Positions 5,980 to 42,403 of a stretch of DNA of 64,000 bases are shown one piece after another. The stretch comes from Candidatus Altimarinota bacterium. GTDB lineage: Bacteria; Patescibacteriota; Gracilibacteria; CAIRYL01; GCA-016699755. Position numbers and translations under genes: made by a program. The stretch covers positions 1,151,431 through 1,215,430 of the forward strand of contig OY760935.1 of the NCBI GenBank assembly GCA_963664295.1, in the 5' to 3' direction. The notes below the pieces were generated by a model. That model did no database searches. It worked only from the letters and a program-made list of their open reading frames with translations, and was not told the DNA's origin. The stretch's first letter is position 1. Each line of letters starts with the position of its first letter.

Positions 5980-6003
5980 TTTTTAATAATTTAAGATTTA
6001 ATT

Positions 6004-6207
6004 ATGTCAGAAAAAAAATGCGAATTCTGCGCTGAAAAAATGTCTAATATTGATTATAAAAATGTACCTCTTTTAAAGAGATATTTAACTTTATATGCAA
6101 AAATTAAACCTCGTTATTATACTGGGGTTTGCCTAAGACACCAAAAAGAGCTTGCTCGTGCCATTAAAAGAGCAAGACATTTGGCTCTTATTCCTTTTGT
6201 TCGTTAA
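6004..6207 (+). CDS. rpsR: 30S ribosomal protein S18 (zinc-binding type)
   Basis: [49 protein letters not shown]. Confidence 0.97.
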
Positions 6208-6459
6208 TTATTTTCTTTTTTTGAGGAATTTTTTAATTGCATTAAATGCCTTTGCGCCTAATTTTACTGGTTGCCAGAGGTAGTGCTTAACTATTTCGCT
6301 TATTTCTTCGATGTTTTCTGTGACTCGGTGTACATTGCCGAGTATTTTATATGCTCTTAATAATACCAATATTAACACTAAAATCAGGAGTAAAAATCCT
6401 CCAGCAAGTGTTAAGTTTAGTATGTCGCCAGTATTTTCAACTGAAATTCCAAAAATCAT
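6208..6459 (-). CDS. Small single-pass membrane protein
   Basis: 83 aa with one strong hydrophobic segment and an amphipathic basic C-terminus. Confidence 0.7.
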   Translation of the reverse strand: MIFGISVENTGDILNLTLAGGFLLLILVLILVLLRAYKILGNVHRVTENIEEISEIVKHYLWQPVKLGAKAFNAIKKFLKKRK

Positions 6460-6550
6460 TTTTATTTATTAAGTTATTTTTATTTTGCCTGTTATTTTTT
6501 TAAAGTGCAAGAAAATTGTTCAAAAATTGATATGAGCTTTTATTTATAAG

Positions 6551-38440: not shown

Positions 38441-39384
38441 AGTGCATTATTCTTGCTGGTGGCTTTGCAACACGACTTTGGCCTTTAACAGAAAAAACGC
38501 CAAAACCACTTTTAAATTTGGCAGGTAAGCCACTTCTTTCTCATATTGCAGAAAAAATCCCAGCAGAAGTGGAAATTTTTGTGTCCGTTAATTCTCGTTT
38601 TGCTGATGATTTTGAAAATTGGAAAAAAGATTTTAAAGGCAAAAATAAGGTTAATGTTTTTATTGAAGACGCAAATAATGAAGATGAAAAATTAGGAGCC
38701 CTTTTTTCTGTAGCAACTTGCATAAAAGAAAACAAAATAAATGACGATTTATTATTGGTAGCAGGGGATAATTATTTTGATTTTTCAGTAGAACAATTTA
38801 TAGCTACTTTTGACAAAAGTCCTTTGGTGGCTGTTTTTGATATTCAAAACAAAGAAGAGGCAAAAAAATTTGGCGTTGTTGTTGGTCAAAATGGTGTGGT
38901 GAATAAGTTTATGGAAAAACCGGACAATCCACCTTCGACCTTGGTTTCTACTGGATGCTCCATTATTCCGCAGGAATTATTAAAAAACTTATGTGATTAT
39001 GCAGAAGTTCATCGTGATAACCTTGGTGGTGTTTTTGAGCATTTTTTACAGAAAAAAATTTCTGTTGAATATTTTGCTTTTTCAGAAAAATGGTTTGATA
39101 TTGGTTCTTTTAATGATTTTTTAAGAGCTCATCAACACTTAGTCACAGAAACTGTTTTAGAGGGAGATAATGTAAAGAAAAATAATTGTGAATTTTTAGG
39201 AGCAGTTTTTTTAGGAAAAAATACTGAATTAGATAATGTTTTAATTGAAAATTCAATTATTTTAGATGGTGCAAGGGTGAAAAATAGTGAAATTCGTAAC
39301 TCGGTTGTGGGTCAAAATGCTGTTATTTTTGGTGTTGATTTAAATAAAAAAATAATTCGTGATAAAGCTTTTATAAGCCTTTAA
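38437..39384 (+). CDS. Sugar-phosphate nucleotidyltransferase with left-handed beta-helix tail
   Basis: IILAGGFATRLWPLT..PKPLL, AGDN, EKP, WFDIG, IENSII/IRNSVVG repeats. Confidence 0.9.
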   Translation: MKCIILAGGFATRLWPLTEKTPKPLLNLAGKPLLSHIAEKIPAEVEIFVSVNSRFADDFENWKKDFKGKNKVNVFIEDANNEDEKLGALFSVATCIKENKINDDLLLVAGDNYFDFSVEQFIATFDKSPLVAVFDIQNKEEAKKFGVVVGQNGVVNKFMEKPDNPPSTLVSTGCSIIPQELLKNLCDYAEVHRDNLGGVFEHFLQKKISVEYFAFSEKWFDIGSFNDFLRAHQHLVTETVLEGDNVKKNNCEFLGAVFLGKNTELDNVLIENSIILDGARVKNSEIRNSVVGQNAVIFGVDLNKKIIRDKAFISL

Positions 39385-39451
39385 ATAGGTTTTTTGTTTG
39401 TATAAAAAATATATTCATAAAATATTATTTGTTTATGACAAGTTGTTTTTA

Positions 39452-39480
39452 TTGCCAATAAAATAACTTTTTTGTAAAGT
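39452..39480 (+). promoter_or_regulatory. Sigma70-like promoter upstream of the candidate ncRNA
   Basis: TTGCCA-17 nt-TAAAGT. Confidence 0.55.
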
Positions 39481-39486
39481 GATCTG

Positions 39487-39981
39487 AAAACAAAAATCAA
39501 AAACAAAAAAGTTCCTTCAAAACATCATAAATTTAAGCAGAGAAAATAAGAGCCTTTTTGCAAAGCAGAAGTGAGCCGGGTCGCACTCATCAAAAATAAA
39601 AAATTAAAAATGAGCCCGTAGCCTTCACTTCAAAGCCTAGCTAAAAGAAACTCTCTAAAAAAATCTGAGCAAACCGGGGTTTATCCTTTGTTTGGATATA
39701 AAACTCAGCAAAAAGGTTCACTTTTCTTTGCTTTCCGATATAGCTTTAATTTTTTGACCAAATTTTAAAGCTTACTACTTACTGTCTTGTTTGCACAAAA
39801 TTTTAATATTTTGCTCTGTAAACAACTAAAGACGAGTCGTGGGCAGACTATAAAATTACCCAAAGGAAGGCTTGAAACTGGATTGGTCATCTAAATTGTC
39901 TGAATTATCCCTTTATTTGCAAGGAAGATAAAAAGACTTTAAAACAAAAACAAAAAACACCTATAACTTGGGTGTTTTTTT
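39487..39981 (+). ncRNA. Candidate large structured non-coding RNA of unrecognised class
   Basis: No ORF of 60 aa or more. Two stacked 12-bp long-range helices, several further stems and two putative pseudoknots. Flanked by a promoter and an intrinsic terminator. Confidence 0.7.
39952..39981 (+). terminator. Intrinsic terminator, possibly bidirectional
   Basis: AAAAAACACCTA-TAACT-TGGGTGTTTTTTT. Confidence 0.75.
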
Positions 39982-40317
39982 GTGTTTTTAGTAAAAACAA
40001 GCTGTGCATTGTTTGCCTAGATAGACAAATGCGCCGAAAAATATCCTTAAATATTACTAAAAAATATTAATTGTTTTTATATATTTTCTTTTTGTAATCA
40101 AAAAGAAGCTCGAATGGGTCGGACTTGATTTTTTTGAAAAAACTAAAGCTTTTTTCTTCAAAAATCATGTTCTCGTTTCGTGTGCTCATTAATATTCGCC
40201 CACTCCACTCTCGCACCGTCCTCCTCGCATTCTGATAAAAACCTTTCCTTTTATCAAAAAAGAGCAAGAATACAAAATTGCTCAATGCCTAAAAATTCAA
40301 ATCATTCGCCCCTATTT

Positions 40318-40360
40318 CGTCATTGCGAGGACGACGCCAAAAGCTTAGGATGTGGCAATC
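40318..40360 (+). repeat. REP/RPE-like palindromic element remnant
   Basis: CGTCATTGCGAGG...GTGGCAATC resembles the widespread GTCATTGCGAG..GTGGCAATC element, which translates as RHCE. Confidence 0.5.
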
Positions 40361-40542
40361 TATATAATTACGGGGCTCAGTTGAATTTTCTTAACGGCAT
40401 TATTCGCAAATTGTATTAACTGCCTTTTTTGAATTGCGGAAGGCAGATTGTAATACTGATAACAAACATCAAAATGGTGCACATTATGGTGCTGGTTATA
40501 ACAACACGTGATTCACATAGGCACTAAGTGGACTCGGAATTA

Positions 40543-41547
40543 TTATTTCTCTTTGATTGTCTCTTTTACCTCCTCGCCAAAGTGTCTACCTTTGCCATCA
40601 GAAATAAAAACCAAAACCTCATCATCTTTTTTAAGCTTAGTCACAGATATAGGCTTACCTTCAGGAGAAGTTAGGCGGATTGTTTCTGCATTTTGCATAA
40701 TCAAAGAAACAGTTTCATTATTTACCTCTGCTTCTATGAGCATCATTGGTCGTTTTTCAATTTTAACTCTGCCAACAGCCACCACAGCAGTTTCACCTTG
40801 TGGATTAACAGTCAAAACTTCATCACCTGCAGAAAGTTCGCATAGATATTTAGTTTTATTATTAGGCATTTTTACATAAGCATGCACAGCACCAGCGTTT
40901 ACACGAAAAGGGCGTGCGTCACAATAAGGACTTTGAACATTTTCGTTATAAACAAGAAAAAATGATTTTGAAGTGTTACCAACAAGCAAACCCTCTCCTG
41001 GTTGCAACATGCTAGTTGTGTCAATACAGCACCTGTCGCTCATTGCAACTTGTTTTGTTTGAATTATTTTTGCTGTTTGCAAATTTGGTTTTTCTAAGCC
41101 TGCTTTGCTGATAATTTCACCAATTTCTTTGATATCATTTACACTTTGAGGAATTAAAAGCACGCCATCTGCACCTTTTTCCATTGTTTCAAGGGCCAAT
41201 TTTGCTTCTTCTGGTGTTTTTACGCTTTGAATTAAATTACTTGTTTTTGAAATTAAGTTTTCCAAAGGAATAATAGTCCAATCAAGATTTTCAATAATAA
41301 CAGGAATTTTTCCTTTATATTTTATTACTTTATCTTCATCTTCTTTTTTTGTGATTTTTACTAAATCAAAATCTTTACCAAGCTGTAAATCACCCTTTTT
41401 TTCGCCAATTACTGTGATTTTTGCTAATGATTTTGTTTCCTCAATTTTATCATCAGGAACCCACACAGCATCAACTCCGCTTTCTAATGCGGCTGTGACC
41501 ATTTTTTTGTCAAATGGGTCTATTTTTATCCAAAATATTTTTTTCAT
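40543..41547 (-). CDS. 3-dehydroquinate synthase II (archaeal-type, AroB')
   Basis: DWTIIPLENLI, LETMEKGADGV, DRCCIDT, GEGLLVG, RPFRVNAGAVHAY, GRVKIEKRP, QNAETIRL, GRHFG. Confidence 0.93.
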   Translation of the reverse strand: MKKIFWIKIDPFDKKMVTAALESGVDAVWVPDDKIEETKSLAKITVIGEKKGDLQLGKDFDLVKITKKEDEDKVIKYKGKIPVIIENLDWTIIPLENLISKTSNLIQSVKTPEEAKLALETMEKGADGVLLIPQSVNDIKEIGEIISKAGLEKPNLQTAKIIQTKQVAMSDRCCIDTTSMLQPGEGLLVGNTSKSFFLVYNENVQSPYCDARPFRVNAGAVHAYVKMPNNKTKYLCELSAGDEVLTVNPQGETAVVAVGRVKIEKRPMMLIEAEVNNETVSLIMQNAETIRLTSPEGKPISVTKLKKDDEVLVFISDGKGRHFGEEVKETIKEK

Positions 41548-41557
41548 GATTTTATTC

Positions 41558-42403
41558 TTAGAATGGTAAATCTTCTGGCTTGATTTCACTCTCGTGATTT
41601 ATTTCAGGAATTTCAGGTAAATCTTCTGAGCTTGATGCAGAAGTAGAGGACTGAGTGCTTGTTGCTGGAGCGCCTGCTGTCATAGGTGCATTGCCCATTG
41701 AGTTATATCCTAAAAGAAGAACTTCATCAGCATTGATTTCTGTTGTATAGCGCTTATCGCCATCAGGAGTTTCCCATGAACGAGTTGTACAAGGTCCTTG
41801 CACCATTACTTTTTGGCCTTTTTTGATTTTTTCGCCAACTTCTTTGGCCAGTGCGCCCCAAGCAACAACATTGTGAAACTCGGTTTCTTCTTGCATATCT
41901 CCACCTTCTGGTTGCCAGCGCATATTTGTTGCAACGCCAAAATTGCAAACATCTTCGCCACTTGGAGTTTGACGAAGCTCGGGATCGCGACTCATATTAC
42001 CAATTATAAAAGCTTTGTTTATGCCCCCTGATACTGGTGATAAATCAGCTAGTTGAGGTAATTCATATTTAGAATCAAGAAGAATAATCTCTCGAGCAGT
42101 GACCTTTGTTTTTCTTCTTTTTTGTCCATCTTCTGACTCCCATTCTTCAGTTTTTAGTCTTCCGGAAATATAAACTTGAGAACCTTGTTTAAGGAATTGT
42201 TGGGCAATTTCTGCTTGTCGTCCCCAAAGCACAACAGTGTGATAAGAAGTTCCTGTTTGCCATTCATTGTTATCTCTGCGTTGAAATAATGTTTTAACTT
42301 GGAGACTTATATCAGTGACAGATTTGCCACTTGGTGTTTGTCTGAGTTCAAATGTATCAGCAACATTGCCGATAAGCATGATTTGATTTAATGAGAAAGC
42401 CAT
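41558..42403 (-). CDS. ssb: Single-stranded DNA-binding protein with two tandem OB folds
   Basis: Two complete SSB domains (LN..MLIGN..ELRQTPSG..H.VV.WG) and the acidic tip EDLPF. Confidence 0.93.
   Translation of the reverse strand: MAFSLNQIMLIGNVADTFELRQTPSGKSVTDISLQVKTLFQRRDNNEWQTGTSYHTVVLWGRQAEIAQQFLKQGSQVYISGRLKTEEWESEDGQKRRKTKVTAREIILLDSKYELPQLADLSPVSGGINKAFIIGNMSRDPELRQTPSGEDVCNFGVATNMRWQPEGGDMQEETEFHNVVAWGALAKEVGEKIKKGQKVMVQGPCTTRSWETPDGDKRYTTEINADEVLLLGYNSMGNAPMTAGAPATSTQSSTSASSSEDLPEIPEINHESEIKPEDLPF

Follow-up and report, generated by a model that had tools for sequence, protein, structure and literature searches.

A predicted family of large structured RNAs with a pseudoknotted core in Patescibacteria, and its possible role as a decoy for readers of A-rich start leaders

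New classes of large structured RNAs are rare and have repeatedly given new folds and assemblies. The sponge RNAs CrcZ/CrcY and CsrB/RsmZ have their own promoter and terminator, are often duplicated, and carry a repeated single-stranded motif that resembles a start leader. ROOL and GOLLD occur in phages. Together with OLE, these two are outlined in PMC12286853 as large, ornate RNAs of unknown function with kissing loops and A-rich loop contacts. The raiA RNA, as outlined in PMC12968392, is a stand-alone, trans-acting orphan closed by a long-range helix, with two pseudoknots, one of 6 bp formed by a loop and one of 2 bp beside the closing strand.

The DNA analyzed here, referred to as the window, is a 64,000-nt stretch of the genome of a Candidatus Altimarinota bacterium (contig OY760935.1, positions 1,151,431 to 1,215,430, forward strand). 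That genome, G000, is one contig of 1.215 Mb, and the other G- and f-labels denote further genomes of the class and families in the comparison set. Judged from its sequence features, one part of the window is very probably the gene for an ~500-nt noncoding RNA, and this predicted RNA represents a new family of large structured RNAs that is absent from Rfam.

Among described RNAs, raiA (RF03072) has the nearest architecture, since both have a closing helix, a loop pseudoknot, and a 2-bp pseudoknot by the closing strand. However, in the outline of PMC12968392 both raiA pseudoknots come from one loop inside the closing helix P1, whereas in the window family they are formed by different elements, with the kissing partner located 3′ of the closing helix. 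The two RNAs also differ in size (~450 nt versus ~200 nt for raiA) and in phylum, and RF03072 gave no match at the locus in five carriers at E ≤ 10. The family likewise combines a conserved 3′ with a variable 5′ region, as GOLLD does in the outline of PMC12286853. Unlike ROOL, GOLLD, and OLE, it has no Rfam match and is chromosomal in one class of Patescibacteria; unlike ROOL and GOLLD, it was found neither in viral collections nor beside tRNA arrays. The sponge RNAs resemble it in promoter and terminator, duplication, and repeated motif, but the conserved tertiary core of the window family is far more elaborate.

The locus and its predicted transcript

The initial annotation had singled out positions 39452-39981 as the only large ORF-free gap in the window. 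It is indeed the largest, although not the sole one, as a second gap at 5980-6550 runs for 571 nt without a 100-aa ORF. The RNA-bearing gap extends to ~40507, beyond the stretch first singled out, and contains a multicopy repeat. A repeat element lies at 40071-40309, with copies at 783362-783177, close to the RNase P RNA gene, and at 759751-759503 and a partial copy at 266615, and a shorter palindromic repeat at 40274-40410 likewise recurs. The left neighbor of the RNA is a nucleotidyltransferase gene on the plus strand that ends at 39384, and the right neighbor is a convergent 3-dehydroquinate synthase II gene. At 40543-42403 on the minus strand, this archaeal-type synthase gene follows one that encodes two SSB domains.

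All coordinates and letters reported for 39452-39981 are correct, and the four inner helices pair as claimed. The plus strand of this stretch folds at −127.5 kcal/mol (z = −4.99), a value that 0 of 100 shuffles matched, while the minus strand reaches z = −2.56. A sigma-70–type promoter, TTGCCA-17-TAAAGT, is located at 39452-39480 (plus strand) and has exactly the layout common to the homologs: TTG-(16-18)-TANNNT-N4-TGA precedes 36 of 40 cores, as compared with 14 of 504 gap-rich stretches taken from G000. At the other end, an intrinsic terminator-like hairpin with a U tract occupies 39952-39985 (plus strand). It is 89% identical over 47 nt to the terminator of a second copy in G000, and a U-tailed hairpin lies directly 3′ of the core in 28 of the 28 cores listed. 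Taken alone, promoter-like and terminator-like sites in the region are at chance level (10 versus 8.9 and 2 versus 1.5, respectively), and the two sites gain significance because the homologs share them. Transcription is predicted to start at ~39485, and the predicted gene spans 39485-39985 on the plus strand; with the conserved TGA and the U tract as its ends, it measures ~497 nt. In the family, the gene measures 355 to 594 nt, with a median of 452 nt in 47 copies. Contigs from a second study cover 39400-39717 only, at a depth below 4; they carry four changes before 39535 and one structure-compatible change after it, a C-G pair that becomes U-G in the 5′ domain of this other strain, and the coverage is too low for these changes to carry weight. 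Short ORFs in the stretch, including a three-codon ORF at 39610, are not conserved.

A search of the window against Rfam 15 gave no gathering-level match and only terminator-driven noise at E ≤ 10, so that the window RNA matched no family; searches of 2 and of 12 homologous loci also gave no match. As the initial annotation had held, the RNA is not RNase P RNA, tmRNA, or SRP RNA. The real RNase P RNA gene of G000 is at 782741-783079 (176 bits), and the real tmRNA gene is at 748048-748482, with no tmRNA call in the window; of 52 matches, just 24 have a tag-like frame with its stop after codon 9. There was no SRP model match, and G000 lacks SRP RNA, Ffh, and FtsY. The locus is not an origin of replication, given that the skew minimum of G000 lies near 975 kb, far from it. 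No description of the family surfaced in the literature searched, although the database of 5.14 million clusters presented in bioRxiv 10.64898/2026.10.21.760802 may contain it without a name; PMC10085705 is unrelated to the family.

The remaining candidate of this kind is a highly diverged housekeeping RNA, and 6S RNA (RF00013) is the only one missing from G000, where none was found. Like the window RNA, 6S RNA comes from a stand-alone gene, and the window copy has an ~200-nt closed domain. Nevertheless, neither the 6S model nor a lineage profile matched, the closed domain of the window copy is not conserved, and the 6S-like RNAs of relatives are rods of 152-161 nt with other motifs. These 6S-like RNAs occur in 8 of 39 relatives and score 34-44 bits, all below the Rfam cutoff. 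Mainly because genome G029 carries both a 6S-like RNA and a separate RNA of the window type, identity with 6S is excluded, and with RNase P RNA and tmRNA encoded elsewhere and no SRP proteins, we regard a diverged housekeeping RNA as hardly credible.

The pseudoknotted core and the variable 5′ domain

The conserved part of the family is a core of ~165 nt at 39730-39889. Its 5′ strand (39730-39740, plus strand) forms the closing helix, which is 98% paired in the alignment, by pairing of 39730-39736 with 39865-39871. The sixth pair of this helix, which the search pattern leaves unconstrained, is kept in 48 of 49 copies by five pair types. The core hairpin at 39742-39772 (plus strand), supported by fold and covariation, has a loop at 39755-39761 that forms a kissing pseudoknot through seven Watson-Crick pairs with 39883-39889 (plus strand). 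Two of these seven pairs are switched in the window relative to the commonest form in the family, and a kissing helix of at least 4 bp is present in 47 of 49 copies in a best-of search run without a shuffle control. Neither the closing helix nor the kissing pseudoknot had been noticed in the initial annotation.

Between these elements, covariation supports an interrupted stem at 39784-39833 (plus strand), with a conserved bulge on its 3′ side and a variable, often A-rich loop, and a three-pair hairpin at 39836-39848 (plus strand), whose 7-nt loop contains an invariant GG (39841-39842). The middle pair of this hairpin is U-A in 31 and C-G in 18 of 49 copies. In the alignment, an invariant CC (39860-39861) precedes the 3′ strand of the closing helix, the two together occupying 39860-39871 on the plus strand. 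The GG and CC likely form a second pseudoknot; we count this pairing as inferred because it never changed on both sides and the pattern demanded it. Downstream, fold and alignment place an interrupted stem at 39898-39937 (plus strand), an abbreviated version of a 3′ domain that in the homologs is longer and covaries.

In an alignment of 27 homologs that leaves out the window, a structure with both pseudoknots has 96.0% of cells paired and 43 of 67 pairs change on both sides, although the nested structure was derived from the same sequences and the copies are kin and not independent. None of 500 shuffles reached as high a value, and slid controls gave 28-40%. Compensatory change among homologs, the shared promoter layout, the U-tailed hairpin, changing neighbors, and the lack of an Rfam match uphold the earlier proposal of a stand-alone large structured RNA gene of a new class. 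With about 50 diverse copies, a fold backed by covariation, defined ends, and natural short versions of ~355 nt, the family is ready for in vitro work.

The region upstream of the core is far less constant. An A-rich, weakly paired 5′ leader (39485-39534, plus strand) contains a pyrimidine-A5-pyrimidine unit, as indicated by fold and motif scan. It is followed by a variable 5′ domain (39535-39733, plus strand) in which two stacked 12-bp helices close a multibranch loop; alone, this domain folds at z = −4.73. The second G000 copy has part of it in common, and 61 genomes searched with a model of the domain yielded no convincing match. Across the homologs the domain differs widely in size and sequence and is absent from several Peribacteria-type copies, and the distance from start to core ranges from 35 to 316 nt. 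Thus, the helices emphasized in the initial annotation are real, but the 12-bp helices and the multibranch domain are a lineage-specific appendage, and the core that defines the family lies in the 3′ half. The first 12-bp helix pairs as proposed, yet its last four pairs (39730-39733) compete with the better conserved long-range closing helix. Similarly, the TATCC/GGATA helix can form, although another arm competes with it in the partition function.

The competition for the core 5′ strand bears on two alternative readings. By analogy with ROOL, GOLLD, and OLE, the RNA could build an assembly of RNA alone, in which separate molecules would be joined through the kissing pair and the alternative pairings of the core strand, and the A5 units would make A-minor contacts. 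Its size, kissing loop, and A-rich loops fit the contact types described in the outline of PMC12286853. The core 5′ strand can pair upstream or downstream, as strand swapping needs (an upstream alternative of at least 7 bp in 38 of 49 copies); the two folds of the window RNA differ by just 3.5 kcal/mol, and the RNA has no linked partner gene. Nevertheless, the upstream alternative is absent from several copies and better than shuffles (p ≤ 0.05) in only 11 of 49, which for the same reason argues against a universal conformational switch. We consider such an assembly unlikely, while placing it first among the alternatives.

The RNA might also be a ribozyme of a new class that cleaves, ligates, or splices, its 5′ domain serving as an exchangeable substrate arm. 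A compact double-pseudoknot core with invariant bases would suit a catalyst, and two similar strands are able to exchange on one guide-like strand. A ribozyme of this sort is nonetheless improbable: no Rfam ribozyme or intron matched, no exon, tRNA, or mobile gene flanks the RNA, and the group I–like GACUA/UAGUC pair varies among copies. This pair presumably lacks the bulged guanosine-site geometry of group I introns.

Distribution of the family and its gene neighborhoods

A single-sequence model of 39738-39940 (R2) matched G115 (43 bits) and G144 (30 bits), both of family f12, among 151 genomes of the class, but had no match in the 39 nearest genomes. BLAST with one f12 copy located homologs in 26 of 31 f12 genomes. 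A further model (R3), built from the 27 homologs with the window left out, scored the window at 39.5 bits (E = 4.7e-8 by a rough calibration) and the second G000 copy, which lies at 756834-756582 and has a promoter and a terminator of its own, at 33.2 bits. Around the second copy (G000:C1:756350-757068, minus strand), parts of the 3′ end of the RNA gene are repeated in tandem downstream of it, and these repeats vary by strain; one 109-nt unit is absent from the contigs of another strain. R3 also matched families f2, f17, f27, and f34, with matches in at least 17 of the 151 genomes when the best 13 candidates per genome were scored.

A sequence pattern of the deep core was present in 41 of 401 class genomes, as compared with 2 for the reversed-pattern control, and was distributed over f12 (23 of 31), f25 (12 of 14), f27 (2 of 16), and f2 (1 of 12); a match in G298 looks like chance. 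Neither the pattern nor the core model found the RNA in the seven other genomes of the window's own family, and a second test of four of these did not find it either. Outside the class, one genome matched among 401 genomes of the phylum, against a reversed-pattern control of two. A pattern scan of a genome collection returned 37 loci, namely 27 strong ones, 4 divergent ones from Peribacteria, and 6 without support. The true loci belong to Peregrinibacteria, Peribacteria, Gracilibacteria, and Patescibacteria, and the six loci from outside Patescibacteria received no score from the profile or R3. BLAST of the window stretch against 100 relatives gave short low-complexity matches only, the same stretch found nothing of note in phages and plasmids, two metagenome scans were unproductive, and in 19 relatives of the order the region that follows the upstream gene was not syntenic. 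In viral sequences, 84 loose-pattern matches were obtained, none of which R3 scored, and a promoter preceded 0 of the 11 with full pairing. The lack of finds in viral contigs and phages, where ROOL and GOLLD occur, also speaks against an assembly of RNA alone.

Several genomes carry two or three copies of the RNA, some in tandem. These multiple copies, the patchy occurrence in the class, and the strain-variable repeats behind the second G000 copy would fit a DNA-level or selfish element, such as the relic of a nonautonomous mobile element. We hold this to be very improbable given the many G-U pairs, the strand-specific promoter and terminator, and a tree of 35 cores in which copies group by host family, with weak deep forks; only one IS200-like gene was present among the 62 scanned neighbors. 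That the RNA is retained, and often duplicated, in genomes of ~1 Mb that have little noncoding DNA and have lost SRP suggests that it truly benefits the cell.

Of the 39 loci in which a downstream gene is visible, 30 have this gene in convergent orientation, as the window does, and the neighboring genes vary (62 of 75 neighbors scanned). Because downstream genes are mostly convergent and of varied families, with no constant gene on the same strand, a riboswitch or cis-acting leader is ruled out, in agreement with the initial annotation. Among the 62 neighbors, recG lies upstream of the RNA in five loci, and a SLOG-family gene is convergent to it in four.

The recurrence next to recG, together with the near-fixation of the RNA in two families and the unpaired bases next to the closing helix and the small hairpin, which stay invariant across deep branches, could point to a scaffold or cofactor of a ribonucleoprotein enzyme, with the invariant core as a protein or ligand site and the A-rich parts as spacers. 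No nuclease, ligase, or reverse transcriptase recurs among the 62 neighbors, however, and neither a reverse transcriptase nor Ro60, the partners of retron, DRT, and Y RNAs, was found in the four carriers tested or among the scanned neighbors. Such a scaffold is therefore also unlikely, slightly more so than an assembly of RNA alone.

The A5 unit and the proposed decoy role

An A-rich linker with tandem pyrimidine-A5 units, identified by motif scan at 39938-39957 (plus strand), runs into the terminator. Across 47 genes there are 158 pyrimidine-AAAAA-pyrimidine units, as compared with 32.1 ± 5.5 in dinucleotide shuffles (maximum 43, n = 50), with the caveats that the motif definition was drawn from these same sequences and that kinship among the copies limits their independence. 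This ~5-fold enrichment is present in all three lineage groups, and other lengths of A run are not enriched. A longer motif occurs in 46 of 47 genes, with 88 sense and 0 antisense instances at shifting positions. The window copy has a weak preference for A5 (five A5 versus five A4), and the motif is absent from the RNase P RNA and tmRNA of G000. The exact spacing of five adenines exceeds what a spacer in a ribonucleoprotein would need, and the floating positions suit the fixed tertiary contacts of an RNA-only assembly poorly.

A possible counterpart of the unit lies at translation starts. With starts taken crudely as the first ATG, a Shine-Dalgarno word was present at 9 of 939 starts in G000, where start leaders are U-rich and then A-rich; Bacteroidetes are likewise reported to make scant use of Shine-Dalgarno (PMC6847099). 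In 38 of 939 G000 genes, a doubled A5 unit is located no more than 25 nt before the start, versus 7 further upstream and 9 antisense. At G000 starts in general, the enrichment covers A runs of 5, 6, and 7 alike, antisense too, so a length of five is not special there.

Because A5 is enriched in the RNAs, Shine-Dalgarno is nearly unused, and the doubled unit is start-proximal, we favor a decoy role, tentatively. The RNA would act in trans by displaying single-stranded pyrimidine-AAAAA units to a protein whose usual targets are the A-rich leaders of translation starts, and the compact core would stabilize the RNA and keep the A-rich loops open. Speculatively, the partner would be part of translation initiation, in which case the capacity for initiation would be tuned or stored by the RNA; we take ribosomal protein bS1 or the 30S subunit to be the candidate partner. 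Hfq and CsrA were each absent from all five carriers examined, and cold-shock protein is absent from G000 and its presence does not track the RNA; these proteins are thereby ruled out as the partner, and with them the classical sponge models. Only ~4% of G000 starts have the doubled unit, which counts against a decoy, and a sponge role leaves many invariant bases of the core unexplained. Reasoning from sequence comparison, we give a probability of about one in three to the joint reading of a stand-alone RNA gene with a pseudoknotted core that most likely serves as a decoy for the reader of A-rich leaders.

A more specific form of this decoy reading is doubtful: the pseudoknotted core may dock on the translation machinery of Gracilibacteria, which is free of Shine-Dalgarno, by mimicking A-rich leaders, and thereby store or throttle initiation in host-dependent cells. 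If true, it would be the translation counterpart, in RNA, of the action of 6S on RNA polymerase. The exact five-A repeat offers a testable handle on the start of translation without Shine-Dalgarno pairing. The RNA is no substitute for the hibernation factor, a protein that carriers possess. That factor's family, PF02482, was not found in the sampled genomes of f13 (0 of 36), f23 (0 of 18), and f30 (0 of 15).

Elsewhere in G000, a structured unit of ~110 nt is repeated behind both tRNA-Lys genes (G000:C1:135346-136163, minus strand, and 557472-557648). The units have no Rfam match, and each terminates with a duplicate of the 3′ end of the tRNA. They contain a motif reminiscent of twister ribozymes.
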